A stretch of 64,000 nucleotides of DNA from an uncultured Planctomycetales bacterium (GTDB lineage Bacteria > Omnitrophota > Gorgyraeia > Aquiviventales > Aquiviventaceae), in contig CAYJTP010000001.1 of the NCBI GenBank assembly GCA_964373175.1, positions 41,654 through 105,653 of the forward strand, in the 5' to 3' direction. Positions 180 to 45,840 of this stretch are shown here, piece after piece; positions within the stretch are counted from its first letter, which is position 1; each line of letters begins with the position of its first letter. The notes beneath the pieces are model-generated. The model saw nothing but the letters and a program-made list of their open reading frames with translations, searched no databases and had not been told where the DNA came from. A program made the position numbers and the translations under genes.

Positions 180-1174
180 CGCTGCCGCCCTATGAGCTGT
201 TGTTTGCGCCATTCGATGAGCTCTTGCAGCCCCTCCCGCAGTGGGACCTCAGCCCTGAAACCCAACAGCTGTTCAGCTTTCTCCGTGCTTCCGACCCGAT
301 GCTGGACGAAGGTCTGGCCCTGCGGTCGATGCTCAGGCAGGAGCAAGGACCCAGTCAGGTCCAGGAGCTCCCGCACCAGTTCGTTGAGGGTGGTGTGAAC
401 CCCCATGCCGATATTGAACGCCTCATCGGTGGCAGAAGCTTTGAGCGCCATCACGTTAGCCCGGGCCGCATCCCCCACGAAGATGAAGTCGTAGGACTGG
501 GAGCCATCCCCGTAGATGAGGGGGGGCTGTCCCTCGTCGATCCGATCCAGCGTCTTCATGATCACGTTCGTATACGCACCGCGATCATCTTGACGAGGCC
601 CATAGACGTTCATGTACCGAAGCGCCACGTATTCCAACCCATAGCGATGGGAAAAGGCTCGGCACATCTGCTCGCCGGCAATCTTCGTCGCCCCATAGAA
701 CGTTCGATTTGCGAACGGATGCTCTTCGGTCATGGGCACCTGGAGGGCATCGCCGTAGACGGAAGCCGAGGAGGAGTAGACCAACCGCTTGACCTTGTTG
801 GCCACGCACGCCTCCAGCACATTGAAGGTGCCCTGAACGTTGACCTCGAACGCCGATCTCGGGTAGTCCTGACAGTGCAACAGCCAGAGCGCTGCCAGAT
901 GCACGACGCAGTCCACATCTCGCATCGCGGCGTTGAGCACATCAGCATGCAGGATGTTGCCACCCAGTTCGTAGATCGTCACGCGAGGATCTCGAAGTGC
1001 GGCTTCGAGATTCTTCAGGTTCCCCCTTGAAAAGTCGTCGTACACGATCACCTGCGCAACCTCCTCTTGTGTGAGGAGGTCGACCACGTGAGAACCGATA
1101 AAACCGGCTCCTCCAATGACGAGAACGCGCTTTCCCTTAAGGTCCATCCGGTTGGAGGTCTTCTCGCTGCTCAC
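176..1174 (-). CDS. NAD-dependent epimerase/dehydratase (SDR family, UDP-sugar 4-epimerase-like)
   Basis: 332 aa. N-terminal [15 protein letters not shown] Rossmann motif; YGATK (YxxxK) catalytic motif; overall UDP-glucose 4-epimerase-like layout. Confidence 0.85.
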   Translation of the reverse strand: MSSEKTSNRMDLKGKRVLVIGGAGFIGSHVVDLLTQEEVAQVIVYDDFSRGNLKNLEAALRDPRVTIYELGGNILHADVLNAAMRDVDCVVHLAALWLLHCQDYPRSAFEVNVQGTFNVLEACVANKVKRLVYSSSASVYGDALQVPMTEEHPFANRTFYGATKIAGEQMCRAFSHRYGLEYVALRYMNVYGPRQDDRGAYTNVIMKTLDRIDEGQPPLIYGDGSQSYDFIFVGDAARANVMALKASATDEAFNIGMGVHTTLNELVRELLDLTGSLLLPEHRPQGQTFVQHRVGSTEKAEQLLGFRAEVPLREGLQELIEWRKQQLIGRQR

Positions 1175-2240
1175 CGTAGGCCCGCCAGCCGAACAGGCCT
1201 GTGGCGGTGACCCTCGAGCGGTCGAGCTGCGCGCGGCTCAGCCAGCTGTCAAGATCCCGGGCATCGTAATAGAAGCGGATGGGTGCCGTGAGGCGATCGA
1301 ACCAGTCCGCCCACACCACCTGAAATGGGTAGCGGCTATACACCTTGAGTCTCGGAAATGCAACCCTTCTGACCAAGGGTCCGAGGAACGGGAGTGTCGA
1401 CGTGACCTGATACGGCACGATAAAGCCTGCCCAGTCTACCGCCGCTGACACAAATGAGATCACCTGTTGAGCTCCCTTGGGTAATCGGGTTGTGACAGTC
1501 CGCGCACACTCCAGCGTGAAGTTCACGACCGGACGACTCTTGCTATAGACCCAGATGAAGACTGAGCCTCCAGGCTTGACCAGCGAGGGCAGGCAGCGGA
1601 ATCCCGCTTCTGGGTCAGGCAGGTGATGGAGGACGCCGATACTATAGGCAAAGTCAAAGCCCCTGTGACGAAACGGCAGCCGATACAGGTTCGCTTGAAC
1701 CAAGTGCACGTTCGGCAAGTGCTGGGTGTTGCGCCTTGCGACATCGATGGCCGCACCGATATCGACGCCGACCATTTCGGCGCCCAGGGTGGCTGCGTTA
1801 TAGATGTGCCGCCCAAACCCACACCCCACGTCGATGCCCACCTTGCCAGGGAAGAACGATTCATCGACTGGCTCGATGTAGTAGAGGAAGTTTTCACGGA
1901 AGTCGGTGACCATCTCGGAGAACAAGGTCCACTGGTACCCAAAACTCTCCCGTGTCTTCTCGATGATCCGAACGAAGCCGTCCCGAGGTTTCTCTGCTGC
2001 CTCAACTGTCCTGTTCCGTCCGAGCCGAACCCCGTACCGATCTCTCAACGATGGCCAGAGGTCAAAGGCGTTCTCCAGCATACGGGGAATGCCGTTGACG
2101 ATCGGGTAGCTCAATCCGCAGCGGCACTCGAGCAGCCCTTCGAGGACTTCGTCTCGCCCTAGTGACTCGACAAAGGGGGTCAGCTCGAGCGTCCCCAAAT
2201 ATCCCGGACAGCGAAGCAGCTCAACGAGTAGACCGCGCAT
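1137..2240 (-). CDS. class I SAM-dependent methyltransferase with N-terminal Trm112-like zinc-ribbon domain
   Basis: 367 aa. N-terminus ...RCPGY...ECRCGLSYPIVNGIPRML resembles a Trm112/DUF343 ribbon. GIDVGCGFGRH is a SAM-binding motif I. Confidence 0.8.
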   Translation of the reverse strand: MRGLLVELLRCPGYLGTLELTPFVESLGRDEVLEGLLECRCGLSYPIVNGIPRMLENAFDLWPSLRDRYGVRLGRNRTVEAAEKPRDGFVRIIEKTRESFGYQWTLFSEMVTDFRENFLYYIEPVDESFFPGKVGIDVGCGFGRHIYNAATLGAEMVGVDIGAAIDVARRNTQHLPNVHLVQANLYRLPFRHRGFDFAYSIGVLHHLPDPEAGFRCLPSLVKPGGSVFIWVYSKSRPVVNFTLECARTVTTRLPKGAQQVISFVSAAVDWAGFIVPYQVTSTLPFLGPLVRRVAFPRLKVYSRYPFQVVWADWFDRLTAPIRFYYDARDLDSWLSRAQLDRSRVTATGLFGWRAYGEQREDLQPDGP

Positions 2241-2254
2241 ACGACCCTCTCAGA

Positions 2255-3322: not shown

Positions 3323-3332
3323 ACGACCATCG

Positions 3333-4172
3333 CTAGTCCGGAAAGTAAGTCATCACAATCGGCTTCCAGGTGCGGCAGAAGAGGTCTTCGCAGAGGACAT
3401 CTCGAAATCCCCACGCCTCCACGGACAACCATTCCATCACGGGCGAATGGCCAAGCCGTCTCAATGGGGCGTAATAAAACGTATAGTTCAAGAACCCTGC
3501 CGCGAAGAGACACTGGGTGAGCCGCCGCCGTGTCGTCAGCCCCACATGCTGAGGATCATCGGTCCCTGGGGCATGGGAGATGACATAGCGCATTGGATTC
3601 TGCAGCCGAAAGACCGCTCGGAGGCGTTTGTAGAGCAACGAGAGCCTCAGGTAATTCAAGTTTGGCGTCTTGATCACCAAGGGGGCACCGGGCTTGAGGC
3701 ACCTCCGCGCTTCTTTCAGGACCTCCACCTTCACGTCATCGGTCACGTGCTCCATGAAATCGCCGGAAATGGCCCCGTCAAAGAAATGATCGGGAAAATC
3801 CAGATGACGGGCGTCCCCGCAGCGGGCCTCCCCTTGGATGCCGAACCGTTTGAGGTACTCGTTCGCTTTGACGATATGTTGTTCTTCCAGATCTTGGCCG
3901 TACACGATGGCGCCTTGAAGACCACAGTAGACCATCATGGCCCCATCCCCGCATCCAATATCGAGAATCCTCTTGGAGGGACGCGGATCCAGCAGGTGAA
4001 GGGCAACATCCTTGAGCCGCAGGAAATCGACATTCTTCCAACAACGCTGGTGAGACCGATCGCCACCCAGCACATCGGTCTCATTCAGATAGAAGTACCC
4101 TTTGAGCCAACCATCCTGCGGGTACTGATCGCGCACCAGTTGGTTCTGGTCGTGTCCCTTTACCTCAGGCAT
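3333..4172 (-). CDS. class I SAM-dependent methyltransferase
   Basis: 279 aa. ILDIGCGDGAMM motif I, then an acidic motif II (ISGDFMEHV) and LKPGAPLVI motif. Confidence 0.75.
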   Translation of the reverse strand: MPEVKGHDQNQLVRDQYPQDGWLKGYFYLNETDVLGGDRSHQRCWKNVDFLRLKDVALHLLDPRPSKRILDIGCGDGAMMVYCGLQGAIVYGQDLEEQHIVKANEYLKRFGIQGEARCGDARHLDFPDHFFDGAISGDFMEHVTDDVKVEVLKEARRCLKPGAPLVIKTPNLNYLRLSLLYKRLRAVFRLQNPMRYVISHAPGTDDPQHVGLTTRRRLTQCLFAAGFLNYTFYYAPLRRLGHSPVMEWLSVEAWGFRDVLCEDLFCRTWKPIVMTYFPD

Positions 4173-4187
4173 GGTTCTTCTCCTATC

Positions 4188-10426: not shown

Positions 10427-10434
10427 CGCTGATG

Positions 10435-11703: not shown

Positions 11704-11725
11704 GGCGAGAACCCAAGGATCTCCA

Positions 11726-12628: not shown

Positions 12629-12639
12629 GCGTGCGAGAA

Positions 12640-14082: not shown

Positions 14083-14101
14083 TTCTTCTCTCCTCGTCTC
14101 G

Positions 14102-19397: not shown

Positions 19398-19398
19398 C

Positions 19399-20679: not shown

Positions 20680-20681
20680 CC

Positions 20682-30061: not shown

Positions 30062-30095
30062 TGTGCTGCCTGCATGCCTGCTGCCAAATCGCCTC

Positions 30096-33445: not shown

Positions 33446-33450
33446 GAGGG

Positions 33451-34032
33451 TTAGGACGTGTCCTCGGGTCGAACCAATCCAAACAACACCTCGTCCACGT
33501 AGGGGCCGTTACAGGCATACTGCTGAGGCCGAAGCCCCTCTTGGATGAACTGGGCCTTTCGGAGCGCCTTGGCGGACCCGATGTTGGTGGCGTAGCAGCC
33601 TGCGGTCACCTTGTGGAGCCCCAGCTCACGGAAGGCGTACTCAGTCACGAGCCGAATCGCCTCCGTGGCGTACCCCTGCCCCCACGCCGATTTCTCGCCG
33701 ATCAGGAAGCCCAGGTCCGCCGTCCGGTGAGCCCAGTTGATCGGCCCCAATTTAATATTGCCGATGTGCCGATCCCCCGCCTTCAGGATGATGGCCAGGA
33801 ACAGATAGTCAGGGTTTCGCGTGATCTGGGTCACGTAGTCCTCCAACGAAGCTCGGGTGTGCTGGACAAAGCGGCATTCCAGGTATTGGGTCACCTCTTG
33901 ATCATTCATCCAGCGGCAATACGCCTCCGTCACATCAGCAGTCTGTATTGGTCGAAGAGAGATCCGCTTGCCTGCAAGGAGCGGCCGGTGAACGGCAACG
34001 GTCCCGCTCGGGTCGTTGGCGATCGTGGTCAT
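33451..34032 (-). CDS. GNAT-family N-acetyltransferase (RimL-like)
   Basis: 193 aa. HIGNIKLGPINWAHRTADLGFLIGEKSAWGQGYATEA is the RimL-like acyl-CoA-binding core. Confidence 0.75.
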   Translation of the reverse strand: MTTIANDPSGTVAVHRPLLAGKRISLRPIQTADVTEAYCRWMNDQEVTQYLECRFVQHTRASLEDYVTQITRNPDYLFLAIILKAGDRHIGNIKLGPINWAHRTADLGFLIGEKSAWGQGYATEAIRLVTEYAFRELGLHKVTAGCYATNIGSAKALRKAQFIQEGLRPQQYACNGPYVDEVLFGLVRPEDTS

Positions 34033-35063
34033 CCCGCCCCCACCGTCTTCAGGCGCAGCCCCCTCGCATCGTAGCCAGCCCTGTCCATCATGGCGGCTTC
34101 CACATACCGGCGCGGTGTGTAAAACCGCTGCCCAAGCCGCAGCTGGCTGACGAGATTCTCTCCCGCGTCGTTCAACACCGTTTTGATCACGAGGGTCCCG
34201 TCGTGGGTGGCCACTGAGACACCCTCTGGCCCCTTGCGATAGATGAGCCCAGCCTGGAATGGATGGAATGGCCCATCGTCAGCATGGGCCGTGCAGCCCT
34301 TCAGTCGAACCCGCTTGCCGTTCAAGAACGTCGCCGCACCTGCATACGGATTATCGAACGCGCAGAGGAAGGCTTCGAGATCCTTCGTCCCCCATGCCCA
34401 ATCGGCGTATCCGTGATGGGCGGTCGACAGACGAGGAAAGTAGCTGCTCGTCGCCTCGTCCAGGCGCACCCGCCTGAAGGTCGTGCCTTCACGGACTTGC
34501 TGGAGGAATTCCTCGAGAAACTGTTGGCCCTCCTCGAGGACGATCGCGACGTCATCGGCTGGAATCCTTGCGGACTCAGGAAGGACATACTCCTGGGCCT
34601 TAATCACGTCGCCAACGTCAAGTTCTTCCTCGATCAGCTGGATGTAACAGCCCCACTGTCGGTCCCGGCGCATGATCCGCCAGGAGTGGTGCGCCCCGCC
34701 CCGGTAACGCGGCAAGGGGATGGGATGAACGTTGACGAACCGCTCTGCCAACAACTCCAGGAGTGGTTTCTTAAACACCCACGCTGGACCCATCGCCACC
34801 CCCAGGGTCGTTGGATGGATGTGTCGCGGAACCCGTTCATCGTCGTTGATCTCCTCCGAGCTGAAGCAGGGCAGATCCGCACGACGAAGCGCCTCTGCCA
34901 AGGTCAGTCCCTCTGCTGTCACAGGCTCCTCAGCGTGTCGCGGAGCGGTAAAAATGGTGGCGGCAAATCCCAGGGACTCAAGCTTGGGCGCTATTCGGGC
35001 AAGCAGCGCTCCACCCCCAATGATGAGGAGATGGTCGATCGGACCAAAACAGATCGTTGGCAT
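34029..35063 (-). CDS. formyltransferase family (Fmt/ArnA-N-terminal-like sugar N-formyltransferase candidate)
   Basis: 344 aa. Formyl_trans_N-like core (FVNVHPIPLPRYRGGAHHSW, with the SLLP-equivalent catalytic region) plus a C-terminal domain. Confidence 0.7.
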   Translation of the reverse strand: MPTICFGPIDHLLIIGGGALLARIAPKLESLGFAATIFTAPRHAEEPVTAEGLTLAEALRRADLPCFSSEEINDDERVPRHIHPTTLGVAMGPAWVFKKPLLELLAERFVNVHPIPLPRYRGGAHHSWRIMRRDRQWGCYIQLIEEELDVGDVIKAQEYVLPESARIPADDVAIVLEEGQQFLEEFLQQVREGTTFRRVRLDEATSSYFPRLSTAHHGYADWAWGTKDLEAFLCAFDNPYAGAATFLNGKRVRLKGCTAHADDGPFHPFQAGLIYRKGPEGVSVATHDGTLVIKTVLNDAGENLVSQLRLGQRFYTPRRYVEAAMMDRAGYDARGLRLKTVGAG

Positions 35064-35069
35064 GAGACG

Positions 35070-35900
35070 CTAGGAGACCCGAACGTTGAGTCCCGCCTGT
35101 TTCATGTAGGCCCTGGCTTTAATGACGCTCTGGTCCGTAAAGTGGAAAATGGAGGCCGCCGCAACGGCGGAGGCTCCTCCGAGCGTCACCGCTTCCACGA
35201 GATGCTGGAGCGTTCCTGCCCCACCAGCCACAATGACCGGGCAGTCCACGGCATCGGCGACGGCTCGAATCAGCCTTAGGTCATAGCCCAATCCGGTTCC
35301 GTCCCGATCGATGGACGTCAAAAAGATCTCCCCTGCCCCTGCCTCGAGCGCAGTCCGAGTCCAGCAGACCGGTTCGAGACCTGTCGGCTCCTTGCCCCCC
35401 TGTATGAACACCTCGTAACGATCCGGCACAACCTGCTTCGCATCGATGGCCACGACCACACTTTGGCTGCCGAAACGGACCGCGCAGTCCCCGATCAGCT
35501 TGGGGTTTAAGACGGCCGCCGTGTTGATGGCAACTTTATCCGCTCCTGCCTCAAGCAACCTTCGAGCATCCTCAACCGTTCTCACGCCGCCGCCAACGGT
35601 CAGCGGCATGAAGCAGGCCTCGGCCGCCTTCGCAACGACTTCGAGAAGGGTGGAACGATTTTCCTGGGTCGCTGTAATGTCCAGGAATACCAACTCATCG
35701 GCCCCTTGCGCGTCGTAGACCTTTGCAGCGGTGACTGGGTGCCCCACGTCCCGAAAATTATCGAACCGGATGCCCTTGACGCAGCGACCGTTCGACACGA
35801 GCAATGTCGGAATGAGGCGAATCTTCAGCGGGCACACGCACTCCGCCGTCGACCCTTCGACGCGGGCCACGGCCTCCCCGGCCCGCCTGGAGAACAGCAT
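35070..35900 (-). CDS. HisF-like imidazole-glycerol-phosphate-synthase cyclase subunit homolog (WbuY-like)
   Basis: [22 protein letters not shown]...DELVFLDI...AINTAAV matches HisF. Start uncertain: ATG at 35900 chosen, GTG at 35840 or ATG at 35996 possible. The track ORF (to 36086) carries a Pro/Arg-rich extension. Confidence 0.7.
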
Positions 35901-36004
35901 GCCGGGGCGGGCTGGCCGTGGGCCCTTGCTCAGGATGTCACCCCGAATGGGCGAAGAACAGGTGCCACCCCGCATTGGCGGGGTGGGGCTCCACATCTGG
36001 AGTG

Positions 36005-36646
36005 CTAAGTCGGCCATGTGACAAAGTTGCGCAGAAGTTTCAGACCCGCCATCTGGCTTTTCTCTGGATGGAATTGCACAGCCCACAGATTCCGGTCATG
36101 GAGGGCGACAGCGACCGGTCCACCATAGTTGCAGGTTGCGATCACGAACTCCGGGCGGTCACTCACAAAGTGATAACTGTGTGCGAAGTACAGGACCGGT
36201 TCCGGGCCTAAACCCTGAAAGAGCCAACTCTCGGTTGTGGGGTAGACCGTATTCCATCCCATATGCGGGACACGCAACTGTCGGCTGTTATTCAACGGTC
36301 TAACCCGGCCGGGGAGCCAGCGGAGCCCCTCATGAAAGCCGTGTTCGTATCCCTCATGGGCAAGGATCTGCATGCCCAGGCAGATTCCAAGAAACGGTTT
36401 TCCCTTTTGTCGAACCTCCTCATCCAGGACATCAATCCACCCCCCAGACTTCAAGTTCTTCATGCATTCCCCAAACGCCCCGACCCCGGGTAGCACAATC
36501 CGATCGGCTGCTTCGAGATCCTCAGGCCGGTCCATCACGGTGACCTGCGCACCCACGGTCTCCAAGGCCTTTGCGACAGAACGGAGGTTCCCGGTCCCGG
36601 CATTAATGACCGCCACACTGACCCTGGAAGATGAGCGGGGATTCAT
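36005..36646 (-). CDS. HisH-like class-I glutamine amidotransferase subunit homolog (WbuX-like)
   Basis: [14 protein letters not shown], catalytic GICLGMQ (Cys), and HFHPEKS (His/Glu). Start at the ATG overlapping the upstream TGA (ATGA). Confidence 0.8.
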
Positions 36647-37803
36647 TCGCGCGGCTGAGTCCGATCCCAAAGCGGTTGGTCCCAAAGAGCCGTTCCCCGC
36701 TCCGCGTTGGATGGATCGTGCTGGTAGGGGGCGACCGCATGGCCTAAGGCGATCTTCATGAACTCCTCTTCCGTAATCCCGACGGCCTTTAAGAAAAGAT
36801 CGAGGCTGGCCGGACGTTTGCCGTCGTACGCCGCCTCAAGCCGGAGCGCTTCCTCCCGTGAGGTCATCTTCCCTTCCCGCAGGTCTTTACTCACCAGATG
36901 GGCCGTCCGTCCAAACCCGCGCTTGATGAACTTCAGATAATCCCGCACCCCCTGCATGAAGCACTCGATCTTTTCATACCCGTATTCCGGCGGGACCCCC
37001 TCCACCTGTTCTTCCTTCCATCCAAGCTCTCGTTTGATGATCTCAGCTTGCGCCTTGGTCTCCCAGGGGATGTAGCTCCCCAAACAGATGGAGCGGTAAT
37101 TCAGCGCTCGTAATTCCTCGATCGGCGGGTACGCAAAGGGCTCCAGGTCCCGCATCGTGATCCCTTTCCCCAGCATCCCCAGCATATCCTCGGCGGTGAT
37201 TCCCAGGTTGACGAACCGGTTAAAGCGACGCTCGTCTACTTCTTCCTCTTCCTGATACGTGTAGTAGCTCGTATACTCAGCGCTGGGCTCTCCCCAGATG
37301 ACCAAGGGGACTTTGAACTTCACCGCAATGTGCATCGGATAGGCGAAGATCCCGGTATGGCAGTGCCAGCAGAAGTCCCCCTTGCGGATCAGCGCCTCCA
37401 GCATGAGCCGTCGGACAACCTGCCAGTTTGGACGAAACTTCAAGTAGTCGACCCCCAACGTCTTCATGGTCCGCTCAGTATTCGCCAGCACGGTTGGACG
37501 CATAAAGCCGTGATCGAAGGTGACCACCAGCGGCTTGAGATGGTAGCGCACCACCACGGTGTAGAGGGTAAACGTGCTGTCCTTGCCACCAGAAAACGGC
37601 ACAAGACAGTCATAAGGGTGCTTGTCGCGGTAGTGATCGAGGATCGCGATCAGCTCCTTCTCCTTCTGCTGCCAATCGATGTGCTTCTGTTTGTACTCAA
37701 TCTGGCGGCAGACGTTGCAAACGCCCTCCCCATCAAACACGATCGTCTCCTGGGTTTCCGGCAGCACACAACGGCTGCACCGTTTGAGCTCGGTCATCGG
37801 CAT
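36643..37803 (-). CDS. N-acetyl sugar amidotransferase, PP-loop ATP pyrophosphatase family (PseA/WbuZ-like)
   Basis: 386 aa. N-terminal Cys4 (CSRCVLP...CNVC), then PP-loop LVPFSGGKDST. This family pairs with HisH/HisF-like proteins for acetamidino-sugar formation. Confidence 0.8.
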   Translation of the reverse strand: MPMTELKRCSRCVLPETQETIVFDGEGVCNVCRQIEYKQKHIDWQQKEKELIAILDHYRDKHPYDCLVPFSGGKDSTFTLYTVVVRYHLKPLVVTFDHGFMRPTVLANTERTMKTLGVDYLKFRPNWQVVRRLMLEALIRKGDFCWHCHTGIFAYPMHIAVKFKVPLVIWGEPSAEYTSYYTYQEEEEVDERRFNRFVNLGITAEDMLGMLGKGITMRDLEPFAYPPIEELRALNYRSICLGSYIPWETKAQAEIIKRELGWKEEQVEGVPPEYGYEKIECFMQGVRDYLKFIKRGFGRTAHLVSKDLREGKMTSREEALRLEAAYDGKRPASLDLFLKAVGITEEEFMKIALGHAVAPYQHDPSNAERGTALWDQPLWDRTQPRE

Positions 37804-38834
37804 ACCTCAGATGGAGCCACGCTGGGAACAGCTCCGGCTGCGCAGGCCACTTCCCGGCCAAGACGGGCTGACGCGTGGGCCGCGACGACCACTTCAAGGA
37901 CCCGAAGGGCGTCCTCTCCAGACACGCGGGGGACGGCTTCTCCCTTGAGACAGCTCAGGAATTCCTTGAGCTCCTCCAGATACAGCACGTTTGGATCGAG
38001 AGGGGTCGGGATCGTCTCCCAGCAGCGCGTGTCGGCCCGGTACCATCGCAGGCCCTCCAGATAGTCCCAGATGAGCGTGCCCTCTGTGCCGATGACTTTG
38101 CAGGTCCGCGTGTAGGCCCGTTGGGCGCAGTCCAGGTGGAGGCTCGCGCGCCAGCCATTGCTCAACGACAGCCAGAGCAGCGCAAGATCCTCCGCATCCA
38201 TTTGTAAATCGCTCAGATGTGCGGTCAGCGCGGTGACCGTTTCCACCTCGCCCGCAAGCCAGCGCACATAATCAATTTCATGGGAGGCGTCGAGCAGTAT
38301 GCCCCCTCCCAATGCCGCGTGAGCCGTATAACTTTCCTCGTAGTGTTGAGCGGGACGCCAGTCAGGAAGGTACTGGCCGAACTCGGCCTGGATGAACAAC
38401 ACGCGACCCACCCGGCCTTCATCGACCCAAGCCTTGAGGCGCTGGAGACCAGGATGGAACCGGAGCTGATACCCGACCTGAATCACCCGAGAACTCAGGC
38501 GGGCCATGGCGCACAGATCGGCCACGCCCTCGAGCGTGTGAGAGATCGGCTTTTCAATGAACACGTGAGCCCCATGCTGGATGGCTTGCCGAGCAGGCTC
38601 CACGTGAAGAGCAGGAGGCGTGCAAATCAACACCCCTTGGGGCAGACGATCGAACCCCTCCGCGATGCTGCAACAAGGCACGACGCCCAACTCACGAACC
38701 ACCCCGTTGAGCCGATCCGGCAGAGGATCATAGGCAAACAATTCCTTGATCCCTAAGGTCCGGAGGTTGAGAAGATGTCGCCGGCCGATGGAGCCGCATC
38801 CTAAGACGAAGAGTCGTGGGGGGCTATTGACCAT
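37794..38834 (-). CDS. Gfo/Idh/MocA-family oxidoreductase
   Basis: RLFVLGCGSIGRRHL N-terminus, EKPIS motif. Start ATG at 38834 (alternative at 38840). The track ORF is longer. Confidence 0.8.
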   Translation of the reverse strand: MVNSPPRLFVLGCGSIGRRHLLNLRTLGIKELFAYDPLPDRLNGVVRELGVVPCCSIAEGFDRLPQGVLICTPPALHVEPARQAIQHGAHVFIEKPISHTLEGVADLCAMARLSSRVIQVGYQLRFHPGLQRLKAWVDEGRVGRVLFIQAEFGQYLPDWRPAQHYEESYTAHAALGGGILLDASHEIDYVRWLAGEVETVTALTAHLSDLQMDAEDLALLWLSLSNGWRASLHLDCAQRAYTRTCKVIGTEGTLIWDYLEGLRWYRADTRCWETIPTPLDPNVLYLEELKEFLSCLKGEAVPRVSGEDALRVLEVVVAAHASARLGREVACAAGAVPSVAPSEVCR

Positions 38835-40023
38835 ACGCATCCAGCACCTTGGTGACCGCTTCGATGCAATCTTCCACGTCCGCATCAGTCATGCTGTGAA
38901 ACAGCGGCAAGCTGATCAGGCGACGATAGGCCTCCTCGGCCACGGGGTATTCCCCTCCTCGGTAACCAAACCGGTGCCGATAGTACGGGTGCAGATGGAC
39001 CGGGATGTAGTGGACATTGACCCCCAGGCCTTCGGCCCGCAGCGCTTTGAAGATCTCCGCCCTCTCCACGTGCAGCTTCGACAAGTCCAGTTGAACAGGG
39101 TACAGATGCCACGCCGGTGTGGCATCGGGTCGCACCACCGGTGGCATCACCCCTCCCAGGTCCTTGAAGACCCTGGTATAGCGCATCGCAATCTGCTGAC
39201 GGCGCTCCAGATTTCGATCAAGCCGCTTGAGTTGGGATAACCCCAGCGCACATCCGATATCTGAGAGGCGATAGTTATACCCCAACGCGACCATCTCATA
39301 GTACCAGTCACCGCCCGCTTCACGCTCGTGGACGTCGTGCTCGATCCCCTGGTTGCGGAAGATGCGCAGTTGACGGGCAAATTCCGCGTTGTCCGTCGTC
39401 ACCATGCCCCCCTCTCCCGTCGTGATATGCTTCACGGGATGAAAACTGAAGACGGTCATATGGCTGACCGACCCGACCCGGCGACCTCGAAGCTCTGCGC
39501 CCAGCGCATGACAGGCATCCTCAATCACGACCAGTCCCTGTCGTTCGGCCAACGCGACGAGCGCATCGAGATCGGCCGGATGCCCCGCGTAGTCCACCGG
39601 GAGGATGGCTTTTGTCCTGGCTGTGACCGCCTGCGCGACACGGTTCGGATCAAGGTTCAACGTATCGGGGCAGACGTCGCAGAACACGGGCAACGCCCCT
39701 TGGTACAACAGGGCATTGGCCGTCGCGCAGAACGTCAGCGGGGTGGTCACCCCTTCATCCCCAGGCCCCAACCCAGCCGCAAAGACCGCTCCATGAAGCG
39801 CGGCAGTGCCGGAAGAGAAGGCCACAGCGTAACGACTCCCGACACGAGCCGCGAGGGCCGCTTCGAACTGCTCGACGACCGGACCGGTCGTCAACCAGTC
39901 CGACCGCAGGACTTCCAGGACCCCCTGGAGATCCTCCTCGAGCACCTCATGGTGCCCATACGGCAACCGTCTCTGGCGGACCGGTTGTCCCCCGTCGACC
40001 GCCAAGGTAGGTAGCGCCTTCAT
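38824..40023 (-). CDS. pseC: DegT-family aminotransferase (PseC-like UDP-4-amino-4,6-dideoxy-N-acetyl-beta-L-altrosamine transaminase)
   Basis: VLEEDLQGVLEVLRSDWLTTGP..., and FSFHPVKHITTGEGG (PLP lysine). Immediately downstream of the PseB-like gene. ATG at 40023; the preceding GTG at 40026 is used by the track. Confidence 0.8.
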   Translation of the reverse strand: MKALPTLAVDGGQPVRQRRLPYGHHEVLEEDLQGVLEVLRSDWLTTGPVVEQFEAALAARVGSRYAVAFSSGTAALHGAVFAAGLGPGDEGVTTPLTFCATANALLYQGALPVFCDVCPDTLNLDPNRVAQAVTARTKAILPVDYAGHPADLDALVALAERQGLVVIEDACHALGAELRGRRVGSVSHMTVFSFHPVKHITTGEGGMVTTDNAEFARQLRIFRNQGIEHDVHEREAGGDWYYEMVALGYNYRLSDIGCALGLSQLKRLDRNLERRQQIAMRYTRVFKDLGGVMPPVVRPDATPAWHLYPVQLDLSKLHVERAEIFKALRAEGLGVNVHYIPVHLHPYYRHRFGYRGGEYPVAEEAYRRLISLPLFHSMTDADVEDCIEAVTKVLDAYGQ

Positions 40024-40033
40024 CACCGGGGAC

Positions 40034-41014
40034 TCACCTCGAAAACTGCCCGATCATCTGATGCAACCGCTCCCCGCTCAGCCAATCCGTATTGGTGTTG
40101 CTAGCGTAGCGGGTGCCGGGCTTCATCGGCCGGCCTCCCGACCAGCTCTGTCCGTCCCACCAAGGATGAGCGGGCTGGATGATGTACATATCATCAAATT
40201 CGAGGGCCTGGGCGACTTCGTCCTCGGAAATGAGCACCTCATGGAGTTTCTCTCCTGGCCGGATGCCAATGAGCTCCACTTGAGCGTCCGGTGCAATGGC
40301 TTTCGCTAGGTCCATGATCGCCATGCTGGGAATTTTTGGCACAAACACCTCCCCGCCCTGCATCTGCTGGACACAGCGAATCACAAAGTGTACCCCTTGC
40401 TCGAGCGTGATCCAAAAGCGTGTCATCCGAGAGTCGGTAATCGGCAGCCGGCCGTTCTCGCGTTTGCCCAGGAACAGGGGGATCACGCTGCCCCGGCTGC
40501 CCACGACATTGCCATAGCGCACACAACTAAAACGCGGGCCCTCCGCACCGGAGTACGCATTGCTGTGAATACAGAGCTTCTCCGCACACAGTTTTGTCGC
40601 GCCATACAGGTTGACCGGATTGACCGCTTTATCAGAGCTGACCAGCATGACCCTCTTGACCCCCTGATCGATCGCGGCCTCCACGACGTTCCGCGAGCCC
40701 ATCACATTGGTCATGATCGCTTCGATGGGATTGTACTCACAGGTTGGGATCTGCTTTAAGGCTGCGGCATGCACGACGATCTCGACACCGTTGAAGGCCC
40801 GTTCCAGTCGTTCCCGGTCCCTGACATCCCCGATGAAATACCGAAGACAGGGATGGTCAAAGCCGGATTGCCGCATCTCATGCTGTTTGAGCTCATCCCG
40901 ACTGAAGACGATGAGTTTCTTGGGCTGATAATCCCGCAGGACGACTTCTACGAATTTCCGCCCAAACGATCCAGTGCCACCTGTGACGAGAATCGTTCGA
41001 CCGTTAAGCTCCAT
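40034..41014 (-). CDS. pseB: UDP-N-acetylglucosamine 4,6-dehydratase (inverting), PseB/FlaA1/CapD-like
   Basis: NGRTILVTGGTGSFGRKFVE..., YGATKLCAEKL. Short SDR-like protein of the Polysacc_synt_2 type. ATG at 41014 gives the typical 7-residue lead-in before ILVTGG; ATG at 41035 is also possible. Confidence 0.85.
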   Translation of the reverse strand: MELNGRTILVTGGTGSFGRKFVEVVLRDYQPKKLIVFSRDELKQHEMRQSGFDHPCLRYFIGDVRDRERLERAFNGVEIVVHAAALKQIPTCEYNPIEAIMTNVMGSRNVVEAAIDQGVKRVMLVSSDKAVNPVNLYGATKLCAEKLCIHSNAYSGAEGPRFSCVRYGNVVGSRGSVIPLFLGKRENGRLPITDSRMTRFWITLEQGVHFVIRCVQQMQGGEVFVPKIPSMAIMDLAKAIAPDAQVELIGIRPGEKLHEVLISEDEVAQALEFDDMYIIQPAHPWWDGQSWSGGRPMKPGTRYASNTNTDWLSGERLHQMIGQFSR

Positions 41015-42323
41015 TGGACGCTCGGCTCCCTCCATCGTTTGGAATCAGTTGGACGGCCACCCTTCTGCCATCGGGATAGACCCACTCGTAAGGAACGAAG
41101 AAGGGTGCGGCGCTCCGGGCCTTGATATCCGCCTGTTCACCCCTCAAACCAAAATCGGCCAGGGGGCCCACGACATGAAATGCTGCGACCTCTTGCGATT
41201 CGAGCAAGGTACGCTTGCTGTTCGCCTGCCGAACACACATCTTCACCGTGTAGAATTGGGGGAGCAGGGGAACAGCGCGGAAACGACAACCGATCACGTC
41301 GTCCCCCTCCATGGCATTCAGAAGCTGTCCATCGAGAGTCATGTTCGCAGCAAAGATTTCACCGAATCCGCTGTTAATCGAGATCCAGACGTAGGGTTTC
41401 TCCACCCTCTGCCGCGCAAAGATGTGCACGGCAATATCGATGTCGTCTCCCGGATGAAAGATCGTCGTTGGCTGACCCTTCGCGTTCCTCAACACGACCC
41501 GCCTCACTTGGATGACTCCCAGGCCTTGGGTCGCGAGTGAACCTTCGGTGACAGCGGAAAGATACGCCGCCACCGTCTCCTCCGGGGAGCCGACGTCCCG
41601 CAGTTGTCCGCCATCCAGCCAGATCGTCCGATCACAGAGACTCTCGATGGCCCCCATGTTGTGGCTGACGAAGAGGACGGTCCGACCCTCGCTGGCGACG
41701 TTGCCCATCCTTCCCAGACACTTCTTCTGGAACGCCGCGTCTCCTACAGCCAGCACTTCATCAACCAAGAGGATCTCCGGCTCCAAGTGGGCGGCGACCG
41801 CGAAAGCCAGTCGCACGTACATGCCGCTCGAGTAATGCTTCACCGGGGTATCCAGGAACCTCTCCACCTCGGAAAAGGCGACAATCGCATCGAATTTGCG
41901 CGTGATCTCCGCTGTTCTCATCCCCAAGATGGCGCCGTTCAAGAACACGTTCTCCCGACCCGTCAATTCTGGGTGGAACCCAGTCCCCACCTCCAACAAC
42001 GACCCCACTCGCCCCCGGACCGCTGCGAATCCCTCCGTGGGTTCTGTGATGCGGGAGAGGAGTTTCAGCAACGTGGTCTTGCCTGCTCCGTTGCGGCCGA
42101 TCACCCCCATCACCTCGCCCGGCCTGACCTCGAAGGAGACATCCTTCAGGGCCCAGATCATCCCACTGTCCGAGGCTCGGGAACAGGAAGGCGATCTTCT
42201 CAAGCGTCGAAAGGGAGCGTTCCAGGCCTCCGTCAAGGTGTCTCGAAGCGTGCGGTAGCGCTCCGGCTGACCGATGCGGTAGCGCTTGCTGAGATTCTTG
42301 ACGTCGATGGCGACATGGGTCAT
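41004..42323 (-). CDS. wzt: ABC transporter ATP-binding protein Wzt (O-polysaccharide/teichoic-type exporter) with C-terminal carbohydrate-binding-like extension
   Basis: 439 aa. Walker A GRNGAGKTT, signature YSSGMYVRLAF, Walker B LLVDE, then a ~180-aa extra C-terminal beta-rich domain. Confidence 0.85.
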   Translation of the reverse strand: MTHVAIDVKNLSKRYRIGQPERYRTLRDTLTEAWNAPFRRLRRSPSCSRASDSGMIWALKDVSFEVRPGEVMGVIGRNGAGKTTLLKLLSRITEPTEGFAAVRGRVGSLLEVGTGFHPELTGRENVFLNGAILGMRTAEITRKFDAIVAFSEVERFLDTPVKHYSSGMYVRLAFAVAAHLEPEILLVDEVLAVGDAAFQKKCLGRMGNVASEGRTVLFVSHNMGAIESLCDRTIWLDGGQLRDVGSPEETVAAYLSAVTEGSLATQGLGVIQVRRVVLRNAKGQPTTIFHPGDDIDIAVHIFARQRVEKPYVWISINSGFGEIFAANMTLDGQLLNAMEGDDVIGCRFRAVPLLPQFYTVKMCVRQANSKRTLLESQEVAAFHVVGPLADFGLRGEQADIKARSAAPFFVPYEWVYPDGRRVAVQLIPNDGGSRASNGA

Positions 42324-42326
42324 GGC

Positions 42327-43214
42327 CTACACCACATCAGCAAACGTCTTCTCCATGCGACGAAAGTACACGACCCCACCTGCGAGGAGCACGGCCACCG
42401 CGAACGCCGATACGAGAACCAGTGGTCCAGGGCTTCCCGTCTTGCCCAGCAGGGCCCAACGAAATCCTTCCACGACACCGGCCATCGGATTCAGCCCATA
42501 CAGAATGCGCCAGGATTCCGGAACGAGACTGCTTGGATACGCGATCGGCGTGGCAAACAGCCAGACCTGGGCCAGAAACGGAATCGTATAGCGGACGTCC
42601 CGGTACTTCACATTCATCGCCGACAGCCAGAGACCCACGGAGAGAGCCGTGGCAATGGCCAATCCGATGAACAGGGGCGTCAACCAGATCGCCGCTGTAG
42701 GAACGATCCCGTAATAGAGCATCATGCCGATCAAGACCACGAAGGCAACGCCAAAATCCACCAACCCGGCCAGAACCGCAGCGAGGGGGATGATCAGGCG
42801 CGGAAAATAGATCTTCTTGATCAGGTGTTGGTTGGCGATCAGGCTGTTTCCCGACTCCGTGAGCGCATGGGCAAAGAGCTGCCACGGGACCAGGGCCGCG
42901 TACGCGAAAATCGGGTACGGGATTCCATCAGATGGCACCTTGGCCAATCGACCAAAAAAGATGCTGAAGACGACCATCGTGAGAAACGGCTGCAGGATGG
43001 CCCACGCCGCTCCGAGCGCCGTCTGTTTATAGCGCACCTTGATATCCCGCCAGATCAGGAAATACAACAACTCGCGGTATTCCCAGAGCTCCTTCAGCTG
43101 GAGGGAGACGAAGCCCTTGGTCGGCTGAATCACCACGACGGGGACCGGCACCGATGGCACGGAAAGGAGATCCGCCTCCGGCAACGGGTGTGCAATGTCC
43201 GTGATGTGGGACAT
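42327..43214 (-). CDS. wzm: ABC-2 type transporter permease Wzm
   Basis: 295 aa, 6 TM helices, ABC2_membrane pattern (LWEYRELLYFLIWRDIKVRYKQTALG). Confidence 0.85.
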   Translation of the reverse strand: MSHITDIAHPLPEADLLSVPSVPVPVVVIQPTKGFVSLQLKELWEYRELLYFLIWRDIKVRYKQTALGAAWAILQPFLTMVVFSIFFGRLAKVPSDGIPYPIFAYAALVPWQLFAHALTESGNSLIANQHLIKKIYFPRLIIPLAAVLAGLVDFGVAFVVLIGMMLYYGIVPTAAIWLTPLFIGLAIATALSVGLWLSAMNVKYRDVRYTIPFLAQVWLFATPIAYPSSLVPESWRILYGLNPMAGVVEGFRWALLGKTGSPGPLVLVSAFAVAVLLAGGVVYFRRMEKTFADVV

Positions 43215-44078: not shown

Positions 44079-44080
44079 CC

Positions 44081-44881
44081 TTAGAGGTGGTGGAGATTAA
44101 AATCGTCTGTCGTCTGGGTCAGGAGCCACCCTTTCCCCTTCGGACCTCGGACGAAGTACAGGTAGCGCGACGACGTCTTGAATTCCACCTCAAACAGCTC
44201 GCCCAGGTCGACCCAGAGACTGGGAACGAACGCGACGTCTTGGGTCACGTACCTCCATGGGGCTGACCCTTCTTTCAGGCCGAACGTATAGGTCAACCGT
44301 GTTGGCCTGTGCCGGTACGCATCCCAAGGGGCACACACGATGGCGGTCACGCGCGCTCCGTCCTTGGGCACCCAAAAGATCCGTTCCCGCGCATAGTTAT
44401 TGCGCGAGGCACTGGAGTGCACACAATCAAGCGTCCGCCGGATACGCCTGCTCTGATAACATGCGTAAAAGATGGGTGCCAGCCGGTGATGGTCCACGCA
44501 AAAACCTGCTGGATACCCCTCACGCTCCGTCCAGGCAAAACACACACCGCGGAGATCCGACTTGTTCAGCAGGGGTTCGAGCGACAGGCACTGGCTCTGA
44601 TGGTAGGGGAGGCGGACCCGAATCAGGTGGGCCGAACCCTTATCGAGGACCATGGCGTGAAACAGCATGGGTTCCCGAAATGTCTCATCGCAGACTGCAT
44701 GGCAGTAGGTGCATAACAGATGGGTGTCAAACCCATCGGCACACAACACGGGGAGACAGGAGCTGCCTCGGGCCACGTACCGACTCACCGCCCCAAAGAG
44801 ATCGCTTCCCAGTGATTCGACCTGGATTCGATCCGCGTCGTTGAGCTCCGTTGATCGCTGCATCGAGATGGTGGTCATCTT
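44081..44881 (-). CDS. hypothetical protein (Cys/His-rich), no recognisable family
   Basis: Start at MTTISMQRS, 1 nt after the upstream stop. Contains CxxC pairs (LLCTYCHAVCDETF). The track ORF extends 46 codons further. Confidence 0.45.
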   Translation of the reverse strand, partial: KMTTISMQRSTELNDADRIQVESLGSDLFGAVSRYVARGSSCLPVLCADGFDTHLLCTYCHAVCDETFREPMLFHAMVLDKGSAHLIRVRLPYHQSQCLSLEPLLNKSDLRGVCFAWTEREGYPAGFCVDHHRLAPIFYACYQSRRIRRTLDCVHSSASRNNYARERIFWVPKDGARVTAIVCAPWDAYRHRPTRLTYTFGLKEGSAPWRYVTQDVAFVPSLWVDLGELFEVEFKTSSRYLYFVRGPKGKGWLLTQTTDDFNLHHL

Positions 44882-45840
44882 TTCACGGCACCTCTGCTGA
44901 ACGCTTTTGCCCACGCGACACACGCCTTCGCGCGTTGGGGCCCGAGAACCCAATCGAGGCTCCTTCGTGCCCTGTGCTTCAACGTCGAACTGTAGAAATA
45001 GGTGATCTGATACCTCCAAAAAACCAGCCGCAGAGCTCTGGCTTTGGCCACAGCATGGTTCGAGCCCTGCAGGTTCAGTGCAGGTCTTTCGACCGGAGGG
45101 GCGGCCTTCGCCAACACCCGTAAGCCTCTTCCTTCATCCCCCACAACACAAGAAGAAAATCCAACCTGTCCCAGCAGGGACAAAAACGATGGGCGTGTGA
45201 AGAGCCGTAAATGCTGGGCCCCGAGGAACTCGCCCAGGTGGTGGCGAGGCTTCCAGGCATTGGGGACTTCAAGATACAACCGTCCGTCCGGTCTCAAGAG
45301 AGTCTTCACCCGCGTCAGAAAGGCGCAGGGGTCAGAGACATGCTCCAACACCCGCAAGGCGGCCACCAGATCAAATCTCCCTGGAGGCAGGGACGCCTCC
45401 TCGAAAGTCCCTCGCCGGATATCCAACCCGTACGCCCGTTGCCCAAACCGGGCAAAGGCGGAGGGCTCGATGCCGCACGTCTCCCATCCCAGCCGATGAA
45501 ATCTCAACAGGAAGGAACCCTCGGAGCAACCAATGTCCAGCACCCTCCCCCTCTGCCTGAGATGGGGAGCCGCCCAGTGAAAATCTTCCTCGGCCTGACG
45601 CCCCTTCCACCACAGGTGCTCCTCACTTGGGGTGTCTTCCGCCCGCAACGTTTCGTAGAGTCGTGTTAACTCCCCAGGCTCCAGTTGCGGCCGAGAGTAC
45701 ACCAATCCGCAGGTCTGACACATCACCTTCACTACGCGGGCCCGTTCCAGCCCCAATCGCTGGAGGTACGCATCCCGGCGCAGCACGTAGACCGGCACCG
45801 CCGCCCAGGAACCACACACAAGACACGGGACGTCCTTCAT
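44875..45840 (-). CDS. SAM-dependent methyltransferase with N-terminal Cys4 zinc-binding domain (Methyltransf_13-like)
   Basis: CLVCGS...CQTCGLVYSRP ribbon; VLDIGCSEGSFLL motif I. Start at the ATG in an ATGA overlap. Confidence 0.75.
   Translation of the reverse strand: MKDVPCLVCGSWAAVPVYVLRRDAYLQRLGLERARVVKVMCQTCGLVYSRPQLEPGELTRLYETLRAEDTPSEEHLWWKGRQAEEDFHWAAPHLRQRGRVLDIGCSEGSFLLRFHRLGWETCGIEPSAFARFGQRAYGLDIRRGTFEEASLPPGRFDLVAALRVLEHVSDPCAFLTRVKTLLRPDGRLYLEVPNAWKPRHHLGEFLGAQHLRLFTRPSFLSLLGQVGFSSCVVGDEGRGLRVLAKAAPPVERPALNLQGSNHAVAKARALRLVFWRYQITYFYSSTLKHRARRSLDWVLGPQRAKACVAWAKAFSRGAVKR

Follow-up and report, generated by a model that had tools for sequence, protein, structure and literature searches.

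The 64,000-nucleotide stretch of DNA analysed here (the window) carries a single co-directional, minus-strand locus for an LPS O-antigen-type surface glycan in an uncultivated diderm bacterium, and within it lie four methyltransferases with N-terminal zinc ribbons that fall into three conserved, uncharacterised families. By comparison with known systems, we believe the chances are about even for a model wherein the ribbon of the first enzyme (P1) would serve as an activator, the second (P2) would be a phosphate-methylating candidate cap enzyme, and the last two (P3 and P4) would act on nucleotide-activated sugar acids, a model whose substrates and products we infer from the observed domain content, conservation of ribbon and catalytic motifs, fold similarity and synteny. 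All four open reading frames lie on the minus strand (as do all features below) at the positions given in the preliminary description, and Pfam places each among the class I SAM methyltransferases.

The setting is a glycan-assembly locus, its content assigned by Pfam and NCBIfam profile searches of the 55 window proteins. Export is predicted to depend on a Wzm/Wzt ABC transporter (41004..43214), consisting of Wzm (42327-43214; ABC2_membrane) and an ATPase, Wzt (41004-42323; ABC_tran), whose C-terminal carbohydrate-binding module scores 37.0 bits against Wzt_C, above the cut-off of 30.4, and which is also Wzt/TagH-like in NCBIfam. By its gene content, the locus appears rich in CMP-activated nonulosonic and ulosonic acid pathways, acetamidino derivatives included. 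A pathway of the pseudaminic/legionaminic type (27472..41035; Pfam, NCBIfam), in which acetamidino and formyl variants are options, comprises genes for PseB-like, PseC-like, GFO, WbuX (349.8 bits, above the NCBIfam cut-off of 203), HisH/HisF-like, formyltransferase, GNAT and DUF4910 proteins, together with a cytidylyltransferase-aminotransferase, NeuB with SAF, and a GNAT fused to a PseG-like domain. A sugar-acid module directly upstream of P3 (21614..26036) encodes an AP_endonuc_2-type isomerase, a cytidylyltransferase, a GFO oxidoreductase, an SDR and a short NeuB (Pfam; NeuB/PseI-like in NCBIfam). Directly upstream of P4 (45837..47920) are a cytidylyltransferase (45837-46559; Pfam CTP_transf_3) and a WaaA-like Kdo-transferase homologue (46532-47920; Pfam Glycos_transf_N), with PseF-like and Kdo transferase-like NCBIfam matches below cut-off. 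Seven SAM-methyltransferase domains are found in the window by Pfam. The preliminary description had counted at least three plain class I methyltransferases besides the four with ribbons; three are indeed present, and two of them, at 3333..4172 (Methyltransf_25/11) and 15262..15990 (Methyltransf_11), lack both ribbon and Cys motif, but the third (47917..49698) is fused to a PseF-like cytidylyltransferase (CTP_transf_3, methyltransferase domains and an O-MT dimerisation domain in Pfam). Its methyltransferase part resembles 2-ketoarginine C-methyltransferase and ApyS, the NCBIfam matches to PseF (2.7e-28), ketoArg_3Met (1.4e-27) and ApyS (8e-32) all being sub-cut-off.

P3 (20682..21611, 309 aa) joins a TcaB9-like Cys4 zinc domain (~21438-21569) to a Methyltransf_23 SAM domain, and P4 (44875..45840, 321 aa; Cys4 ribbon ~45697-45828; Methyltransf_23, 81.6 bits) is a second member of the same family. 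The start proposed for P4, the ATG at 45840, is supported by an AGGAG 10 nt upstream and by the ATGA in which it overlaps the upstream stop codon, and an identical 321-aa product is already on record. The family motif is CxxCG...CxxCG...P, in which four Cys, one Gly and one Pro (C20/C23/C46/C49/G50/P56 in P3) are invariant in an alignment of 20 sequences, P4 included, at 22-56% identity. In a Foldseek search with the AlphaFold model of P3 (pLDDT 92.8), the top 18 PDB matches were all NDP-sugar C3-methyltransferases, namely MtmC, KijD1 and TcaB9 (E 9e-20 to 2e-16 over about 330 columns), whereas the best generic methyltransferase reached 7e-12. TcaB9, KijD1 and MtmC/TylC3 (PF08421 + PF13489 + PF08484) likewise carry an N-terminal Cys4 zinc domain and a SAM domain, with a TM of about 0.6 on the query, and the active-site His181 and His225 of TcaB9 align with two conserved histidines (H180 and H223) that P3 and P4 have in common.

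The assignment of P3 and P4 to the NDP-sugar C-methyltransferase type in the preliminary description is thus borne out at the level of fold, and it feeds an alternative that we consider unlikely: that all seven methyltransferases decorate sugar residues along the polymer, so that the glycan would be unusually methylated, and that P3 and P4 are true C-methyltransferases that make branched-chain sugars and, for (non)ulosonic acids, perhaps act at C3 beside the 2-keto group. The sheer number of methyltransferase domains in one glycan locus, the exclusive match of P3 to C3-methyltransferases, the several 4,6-dehydratase/epimerase-family genes that could supply keto-sugars, and the likeness of the separate methyltransferase domain at 47917-49698 to a keto-acid C-methyltransferase all speak for it. 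At the same time, Pfam finds in neither P3 nor P4 the C-terminal Rossmann-like Methyltransf_14 domain (PF08484) with which TcaB9-type enzymes bind the dTDP-sugar, and the two proteins are about 100 residues shorter than those enzymes; hhalign of P3 against a true C-methyltransferase aligns the SAM domain and nothing else. (A genuine three-domain C3-methyltransferase is exemplified in locus L008.) P3 scores 14.8 bits against PF08421, far under the cut-off of 31.3, a scan of P4 gives no match, and the equivalent of TcaB9 Glu224 is not conserved in the family. The kinase fusion in P2, described below, points instead to phosphate methylation.

Genomic context likewise separates the two groups, since the neighbours of P3 and P4 are CMP-sugar-acid genes and those of TcaB9-type enzymes are dTDP-deoxysugar genes. 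P3 and P4 each directly follow (non)ulosonic-acid synthase or cytidylyltransferase genes and, given also the missing Methyltransf_14 domain, C-methylation does not follow from their likeness to C-methyltransferases, though it may occur. In our preferred reading, P3 and P4 would methylate nucleotide-activated sugar acids, on N, O or C. The best-known methyltransferase in their genetic position is Legionella ORF8/Campylobacter PtmH, a neuB-adjacent enzyme of a Wzm/Wzt locus that N-methylates the acetimidoyl group of CMP-legionaminic acid (CMP-Leg5Am7Ac), and the window also encodes acetamidino machinery. That this known neuB-adjacent enzyme is an N-methyltransferase is a further argument against C-methylation. 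The LPS locus of L. pneumophila serogroup 1 (poly-legionaminic acid; ORF8 beside ORF9, neuB) and C. jejuni PtmH share with the window a nonulosonic-acid O-antigen setting and a Wzm/Wzt transporter (both Legionella), acetamidino chemistry and a methyltransferase adjoining a NeuB-family synthase. ORF8 and PtmH, which act on the CMP-activated sugar, are likened to P3 and P4 by gene position. The window locus is far larger than the Legionella LPS locus, with several extra sugar pathways and seven methyltransferase domains.

P2 (17310..19397, 695 aa) consists of a Cys4 ribbon (~19227-19337), a methyltransferase domain (~18513-19052) and, overlooked in the preliminary description, a C-terminal APH-type kinase domain (~17328-18200) that scores 54.2 bits against a Pfam cut-off of 23.2. 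Across 30 homologues at about 25% identity, the kinase motifs HGDxxxxN and D-W are conserved together with the four Cys; C25, P26, C28, C40 and C43 are each at least 90% conserved. For the AlphaFold model (pLDDT 86), the sole PDB entries aligned over both catalytic domains were WbdD structures (4azs, 4azt, 4ax8 and 4uw0; 577-657 columns, E 7e-9 to 6e-8). The kinase domain is nearest to those of the APH, choline-kinase and FN3K types, among which several enzymes act on the hydroxyls of sugars as phosphate acceptors, and CgnL is among the top matches of the methyltransferase domain.

By analogy with WbdD and K. pneumoniae O7 ORF6, P2 probably installs a methyl-phosphate: the kinase would phosphorylate a sugar hydroxyl, the methyltransferase would then methylate that phosphate, and the product would be a candidate for the cap that the Wzt module reads at the non-reducing end. 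A terminal cap is required in all Wzt systems with a carbohydrate-binding module studied, and since Wzt here carries such a module, one or more of the methylations may amount to a single cap at the terminus. In E. coli O9a, the methyltransferase-kinase WbdD performs both steps, phosphorylation and then methylation of the chain-end phosphate (PMC3482155), and like P2, WbdD (E. coli O9a/K. pneumoniae O3; PDB 4AZS, 4UW0) places an N-terminal class I methyltransferase before a kinase in one polypeptide, within an O-antigen locus that relies on an ABC transporter and encodes a Wzt with a carbohydrate-binding module. Identity with P2 is, however, 12-13%, and the WbdD kinase is eukaryotic-protein-kinase-like whereas that of P2 is APH/choline-kinase-like; WbdD ends in a coiled-coil ruler of 250 residues, whereas P2 has no coiled coil but carries at its N-terminus a Trm112-like zinc ribbon, a feature absent from WbdD. 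P2 also shares its organisation with the N-terminal module of K. pneumoniae O7 ORF6 as described, a proven methyl-phosphate terminator in which a CgnL-like methyltransferase precedes an APH-like (AmiN-like) kinase (PMC11231755); unlike P2, ORF6 lacks a ribbon and extends further, through a CBM and a coiled coil, to two GT2 polymerase modules. A ruler is present in every characterised terminator; P2 has none, and a crude scan of the whole window revealed no obvious coiled coil.

The P2 family has 141 matches in species-representative genomes, and of 2,354 representatives at E<=1e-30 the best 150 are, with few exceptions, full length, at about 680 aa. The eight-gene NeuB-P3-GT-P2 block is syntenic in the Omnitrophica MAG locus L004 (38-75% identity), where the glycosyltransferase between P3 and P2 (19399..20706), a sub-threshold match to the BFO_1060 family (NF046086, E 1.2e-20; 74 bits, the curated cut-off being 200), has a homologue at the same position with 57% identity. 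In locus L003 a P2 relative lies 4 kb from Wzm/Wzt(Wzt_C), but a Wzt homologue occurs within 10 kb in 3 of 64 loci with full-length relatives, and the window's own Wzt is 22 kb off, so that close coupling to Wzt is not a feature of the family at large. Such rare adjacency would suit a small-molecule enzyme, an ethanolamine/choline-type kinase plus phospho-base N-methyltransferase whose phosphocholine or N-methylated phosphoethanolamine-like head group is later attached to the glycan. The P2 domains are equally near phosphoethanolamine N-methyltransferases and choline/ethanolamine kinases, and a family member in locus L007 lies beside genes for 2-aminoethylphosphonate, a nucleotidyltransferase and a CDP-alcohol phosphatidyltransferase. 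We nonetheless regard a head-group role as improbable: dozens of generic methyltransferase and APH matches are just as good as those, Pfam recognises no LicD-type or CDP-alcohol phosphotransferase and no LicC-type cytidylyltransferase in the window, and APH-family kinases often phosphorylate sugar hydroxyls, as in the O7 terminator.

P1 (1137..2240, 367 aa; Methyltransf_11, 65.5 bits) has a Trm112-like ribbon in residues 1-55 (~2076-2240), which alone score 21.2 bits against Trm112p (PF03966; cut-off 22; full protein 17.3 bits) and match the 59-position NCBIfam model Trm112_arch at E 4.6e-9. The family is large and conserved: relatives at about 60% identity number more than 1,862, and members occur in glycan loci. 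In its motif, CPxC...CxCG...P..IPR, the second zinc Cys (Cys14) is Tyr (codon TAT) solely in the window's copy among 121 members, a 94%-identical relative keeping Cys, so this P1 retains three of the four zinc ligands. The P2 ribbon (C25-P-N-C28...C40-A-R-C43) likewise scores below cut-off against PF03966 (18.7 bits) and has a PDB sequence match to the Trm112-like protein 2kpi. Trm112/UPF0434 (YcaR) and RlmA(I) show the same zinc beta-ribbon type, CPxC...CxxC...P..GIP, and ECOD assigns Trm112p and RlmA_N to the same homologous group; RlmA(I), among the best Foldseek matches of P2, is also a fusion, with the ribbon N-terminal to a class I methyltransferase. As a free protein, Trm112 activates its partner methyltransferases and makes them more stable, and the fused ribbon of P1 would therefore act as a built-in activator or stabiliser of its enzyme. 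Trm112 works in trans on translation-related methyltransferases, whereas the ribbons here are in cis on glycan-locus enzymes; activation of this type has lately been proposed for a bacterial envelope methyltransferase (bioRxiv 10.64898/2026.07.15.738315).

The preliminary description's picture of two ribbon types on four methyltransferases in one locus thus holds by conservation and fold, with P1 one ligand short and, in the PF03966 and PF08421 searches it had proposed, every ribbon score under the curated cut-off. Both types are supported by the NCBIfam Trm112 match, the family alignments and the AlphaFold/Foldseek matches to TcaB9, KijD1 and MtmC, and even distant homologues keep the Cys knuckles, which are therefore not due to chance. 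That the cysteines are incidental, chance CxxC pairs or functionless relics on four ordinary methyltransferases, is hardly credible despite the low Pfam scores and an intact P1 gene minus one ligand: across families at 22-30% identity every Cys is either invariant or at least 90% conserved, the structure models give the ribbon regions a pLDDT of about 87-97, and such a motif occurs in just 4 of 55 window proteins, the one CxxC...CxxC outside the ribbon methyltransferases being that of the WbuX-like amidotransferase (36643-37803).

What, then, of the unusually methylated glycan, with O- and possibly C-methyl branches, that was first proposed? Seven methyltransferase domains in a glycan-assembly locus agree with it, but the nearest precedents of P2, a methyltransferase-kinase fusion, methylate a chain-end phosphate rather than a sugar carbon or hydroxyl, so sugar methylation does not follow for that enzyme, and P3 and P4 lack the sugar-binding domain. 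Heavy O- and C-methylation of the glycan is therefore at most part of the story, alongside a probable methyl-phosphate cap from P2 and the nucleotide-sugar-type methyltransferases P3 and P4.

The four genes at issue, P1 (1137-2240), P2 (17310-19397), P3 (20682-21611) and P4 (44875-45840), all on the minus strand, encode real methyltransferases by Pfam, as the preliminary description had claimed, and the start it placed for P4 is correct. Its statement that further methyltransferases are present was borne out by the three methyltransferase domains that Pfam finds in the window besides P1-P4. The same description recognized zinc ribbons of two types, Trm112-like in P1 and P2 and a Methyltransf_13-like CxxCG...CxxCG domain in P3 and P4, and here the outcome is divided: both types are real by conservation and fold, but the PF03966 and PF08421 assignments it proposed as a check fail, with P1, P2 and P3 scoring under the gathering cut-offs and P4 giving no PF08421 match. 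Because the evidence of conservation and fold contradicts them, we do not count these sub-threshold scores as refutation, and Pfam assignment as the only test was rejected. A CxxC...CxxC motif occurs in only one window protein besides the four, and on these patterns the ribbons are not a chance occurrence. P1-P4 are variants of kinds already described, namely terminators like WbdD and ORF6, methyltransferases like TcaB9 and ribbons like Trm112; the functional model that we propose for the four proteins overall stands, in our judgment, at an even chance of being right.

Throughout the 64-kb window the genes are all encoded on the minus strand, their junctions are short or overlapping, and GC content stays level at ~0.59. 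From Pfam and NCBIfam scans of the ~55 genes, we read the window as one continuous glycan-assembly locus, and related MAG contigs show that it continues past the window. The best relatives come from Omnitrophica MAGs, at 48-56% identity. Read from its 64-kb end towards position 0, the window has LptD first in these scans. After it come two UDP-sugar dehydrogenases, epimerases, a DegT aminotransferase, several GFO oxidoreductases and one hexapeptide acyltransferase, which together resemble a pathway to a sugar of the 2,3-diamino-uronic-acid type. Next come a DAHP synthase (52480-53517; 352.6 bits in NCBIfam, passing the cut-off of 335), a shikimate-dehydrogenase-like gene, a GT2 with a NeuB C-terminal fragment and an SAF domain, a cytidylyltransferase-methyltransferase fusion whose methyltransferase part is keto-acid-C-methyltransferase-like, and a WaaA-like Kdo-transferase homologue followed by a cytidylyltransferase. 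This stretch, from the DAHP synthase through to the second cytidylyltransferase (45837-53517), may serve to make an unusual heptulosonic or ulosonic acid in CMP-activated form; at the equivalent place, the Omnitrophica relative carries genes for a DHQ-synthase-like protein, an SDR, a WaaA-like protein and a cytidylyltransferase.

P4 and two ORFs without assignment (44081-45019 and 43215-44078) lead on to Wzm and Wzt, the latter with a Wzt_C match of 37.0 bits, above the 30.4-bit cut-off. A pseudaminic/legionaminic-type pathway follows, with PseB-like and PseC-like genes, WbuX with HisH/HisF-like genes, a formyltransferase, GNATs, NeuB with SAF, and cytidylyltransferases. The WbuX N-acetyl-sugar amidotransferase (349.8 bits, with an N-terminal CxxC...CxxC motif of its own) and the HisH- and HisF-like genes after it (35070-37803) form the classic acetamidino-sugar trio. 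A 528-aa protein at 27472-29058, which starts with a GNAT domain and matches Glyco_tran_28_C weakly in its C-terminal part, is possibly a PseH-PseG-like fusion. There follow a second sugar-acid module (AP_endonuc_2, cytidylyltransferase, GFO, SDR and a short NeuB), then P3, a match to the BFO_1060 family of glycosyltransferases (E 1.2e-20; 74 bits, under the curated NCBIfam cut-off of 200) and P2; then a GT4, a methyltransferase, DegT, an amine oxidase, a GNAT, PMT_2-type GT-C enzymes, AsnB and DUF4330; and finally a GT4, a methyltransferase, a GT2, P1 and an epimerase. The two ORFs between P4 and Wzm, along with a third at 26033-27487, went unmatched in sequence searches of Pfam, NCBIfam and the PDB, and thus no additional methyltransferase or chain-length ruler can be assigned to them.

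P2 combines a ribbon, a methyltransferase and a kinase. Its ribbon motif, CPNC...CARC...EGIP, scores 18.7 bits against PF03966 (Trm112p), whose gathering threshold is 22 bits, and its sequence matches the Trm112-like protein 2kpi in the PDB; precomputed PF03966 hits are present in many family members. Among 30 homologues of ~25% mean identity, C25, P26, C28, C40 and C43 are at least 90% conserved, and the full zinc-ligand pattern of four cysteines and E-G-I-P is likewise at least 90% conserved. The AlphaFold model (pLDDT 86 overall) has short strands at the ribbon, at ~87-95. Methyltransf_11 covers residues 125-232 and APH residues 419-598 (54.2 bits against a cut-off of 23.2), and the HGDxxxxN and D-W-E kinase motifs are kept across the family; methyltransferase and kinase are joined in one polypeptide with catalytic motifs intact. 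A PDB sequence search with P2 did not find WbdD, which surfaced in the fold search only. There, four WbdD entries alone span both catalytic domains (577-657 columns, E 7e-9 to 6e-8), at 12-13% identity and TM-scores of 0.2-0.3, which indicate that the relative orientation of the domains differs. RlmA(I), a fusion of zinc ribbon and methyltransferase, is also among the top Foldseek matches, and its N-domain and Trm112p belong to one ECOD group. The family has 141 matches in species-representative genomes of many phyla and is nearly all full length at ~680 aa among the best 150 of 2,354 representatives (E<=1e-30).

In Escherichia coli O9a, WbdD, with the domain order methyltransferase, kinase, coiled coil, first phosphorylates a terminal mannose and next puts a methyl group on that phosphate (PMC3482155). 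ORF6 of Klebsiella pneumoniae O7 carries out the same reactions with a CgnL-like methyltransferase and an APH-fold kinase, and wherever a Wzt that bears a carbohydrate-binding module has been studied, it exports capped chains only (PMC11231755). Based on the WbdD fold match, the RlmA(I)/Trm112 ribbon and these two precedents, we propose that P2 probably installs a methyl-phosphate on a glycan, by phosphorylation and then methylation of the phosphate. A Wzt with a carbohydrate-binding module (41004-42323) is encoded in P2's own locus, and the methyl-phosphate is a possible cap for it to read. At the same time, WbdD has a C-terminal coiled-coil ruler, of the kind required of characterised terminators (PMC11231755), whereas P2 is without it and its model ends in kinase C-lobe helices. 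A crude home-made heptad scan, a weak method that leaves the absence provisional, detected no coiled coil in 55 window proteins.

A rival explanation that we keep alive is that P2 is an enzyme of a phospho-base pathway, as the relative found among aminoethylphosphonate genes in one comparison locus (L007, GCA_040961015.1) would suggest. In that locus (1527-9963), the neighbours of the P2-family member are PEP mutase, phosphonopyruvate decarboxylase, an aminotransferase and B12-radical-SAM enzymes, together with a nucleotidyltransferase and a CDP-alcohol phosphatidyltransferase, a gene set that by its annotations is a phosphonate head-group pathway. The idea that P2-family genes are linked to Wzm/Wzt as a rule was rejected, since a Wzt homologue lies within 10 kb in only 3 of 64 loci with full-length P2 relatives, where the common neighbours are GT4, GT2, DegT and AsnB. 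The proposal that P2 terminates chains is therefore retained as locus-specific only; in one of the comparison loci (L003), a P2 relative lies 4 kb from Wzm and a Wzt with Wzt_C. Kinase-less ribbon-methyltransferase relatives are found immediately downstream of Wzm/Wzt in Ca. Methanoperedens (L059) and Thermotalea (L051), at ~5500-11000. These may be methyl-only terminators, by analogy with the E. coli O8-type WbdD.

P3 and P4 share the motif CxxCG...CxxCG...P, in which four cysteines, one glycine and one proline are invariant across 20 family sequences of 22-56% identity; the two proteins themselves are 22% identical. The TcaB9-type character attributed to their zinc domain is upheld by fold and falls short by profile. 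The 18 best Foldseek matches of the P3 model (pLDDT 92.8) in the PDB are MtmC, KijD1 and TcaB9 only (E 8.8e-20 to 2.2e-16; TM-scores on the query of 0.58-0.63), with ~330 columns aligned, N-terminal region included, and the next match is a generic methyltransferase at 7e-12 over ~210 columns; but P3 scores only 14.8 bits against the PF08421 cut-off of 31.3, and P4 does not match. H180 of P3 is invariant in its family and H223 at least 90% conserved, and these are the counterparts of TcaB9 His181 and His225, which together with Glu224 reportedly have active-site roles; their presence does not discriminate C- from O- or N-methylation, and the acid equivalent to Glu224, D222 in P3, is not conserved in the family. 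Enzymes of the TcaB9 type are ~416 aa long, whereas P3 (309 aa) and P4 (321 aa) are ~100 residues shorter and have no Pfam match to PF08484 (Methyltransf_14), the domain said to supply much of the dTDP-sugar site. A genuine three-domain enzyme (PF08421, PF13489 and PF08484; 423 aa) is present in a comparison locus (L008), and hhalign aligns the P3-family profile with it over the SAM domain only.

An Omnitrophica MAG preserves, in synteny and at 38-75% identity, the block AP_endonuc_2, cytidylyltransferase, GFO, SDR, NeuB, P3, glycosyltransferase, P2; P4, for its part, comes after the WaaA-like gene and a cytidylyltransferase. The methyltransferase ORF8 of Legionella pneumophila serogroup 1 adjoins the neuB-family ORF9 near wzm/wzt, and ORF8 and Campylobacter jejuni PtmH N-methylate the acetimidoyl group of CMP-legionaminic acid (PMC3766260, PMC13306086). 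The points of likeness to ORF8 and PtmH compared here are the position next to neuB and the presence of acetamidino genes. On this precedent and given the acetamidino machinery of the window, P3 and P4 probably methylate CMP-activated sugar acids. Genes like P3 and P4 keep company with P2-like genes in several other loci. In a Dehalococcoidia MAG (L066, DUFD01000025.1, ~900-21400), homologues of all four proteins lie within 21 kb, and both ribbon types together with the methyltransferase-kinase thus recur as a combination in a distant phylum.

P1 has a firm Methyltransf_11 match (65.5 bits), and its N-terminus covers 55 of 59 positions of the NCBIfam Trm112_arch profile (E 4.6e-9), while against PF03966 it reaches 21.2 bits with the N-terminus alone and 17.3 bits at full length, both under 22. 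Its family, with more than 1,862 matches at typically ~60% identity, includes many members with a precomputed PF03966 hit, and the ribbon consensus of 121 aligned members is C11-P-x-C14...C39-x-C41-G...P46...I-P-R. Codon 14 of P1 (2199-2201, minus strand) is TAT, making it the sole member of the 121 with tyrosine there; a 94%-identical relative in another assembly has cysteine. Either the strain truly differs at this site or Tyr14 stems from a sequencing error; with it, the ribbon of P1 is Trm112-like but has three of the four zinc ligands, so that the pattern of four cysteines in two knuckles and a P..GIP strand is present only in part. P1 relatives also occur in glycan loci, one in Acidobacteria with DUF4330, glycosyltransferases and an ABC-2 transporter pair, and another with nucleotide-sugar genes. 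As a free Trm112-family protein has been proposed to activate a mycobacterial envelope methyltransferase (bioRxiv 10.64898/2026.07.15.738315), a role of the cis-fused ribbon in P1 as activator or stabiliser is plausible.

Taken together, the unusually methylated glycan envisaged in the preliminary description survives in modified form: many methylations are likely, but at least one is probably on phosphate and two are probably made at the nucleotide-sugar level, and C-methylation is unproven. Two bolder readings strike us as unlikely: that the P2 family is a third, independently assembled and very widespread class of enzymes for methyl-phosphate on glycans, one that needs no coiled-coil ruler, and that the truncated TcaB9-like P3 and P4 methylate CMP-activated nonulosonic or ulosonic acids, with a C-methylated sugar acid as one conceivable product. 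Were the substrates ordinary, the finding would amount to a well-annotated large O-antigen-type locus. To our knowledge, chain termination and export checkpoints of ABC-transporter-dependent glycans are described for a handful of enterobacterial systems, all with coiled-coil rulers, and we know of no C-methylated nonulosonic or ulosonic sugar acid described so far. Clustered at 50% identity, the P2 family falls into hundreds of groups, spread over Verrucomicrobiota, Planctomycetota, Omnitrophota, Acidobacteriota and Chloroflexota as well as candidate phyla and a number of archaea. If it caps glycans with methyl-phosphate and without a ruler, the paradigm would reach many uncultivated phyla and a large unannotated family would gain a function. 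P3 and P4 would represent a short-form branch within the sugar C-methyltransferase fold, one that acts on CMP-sugar acids, a reading that bears on how nonulosonic acids are diversified at bacterial surfaces, and the cis-fused Trm112-like ribbons would offer a simple system for the support that this domain gives to methyltransferases outside translation.
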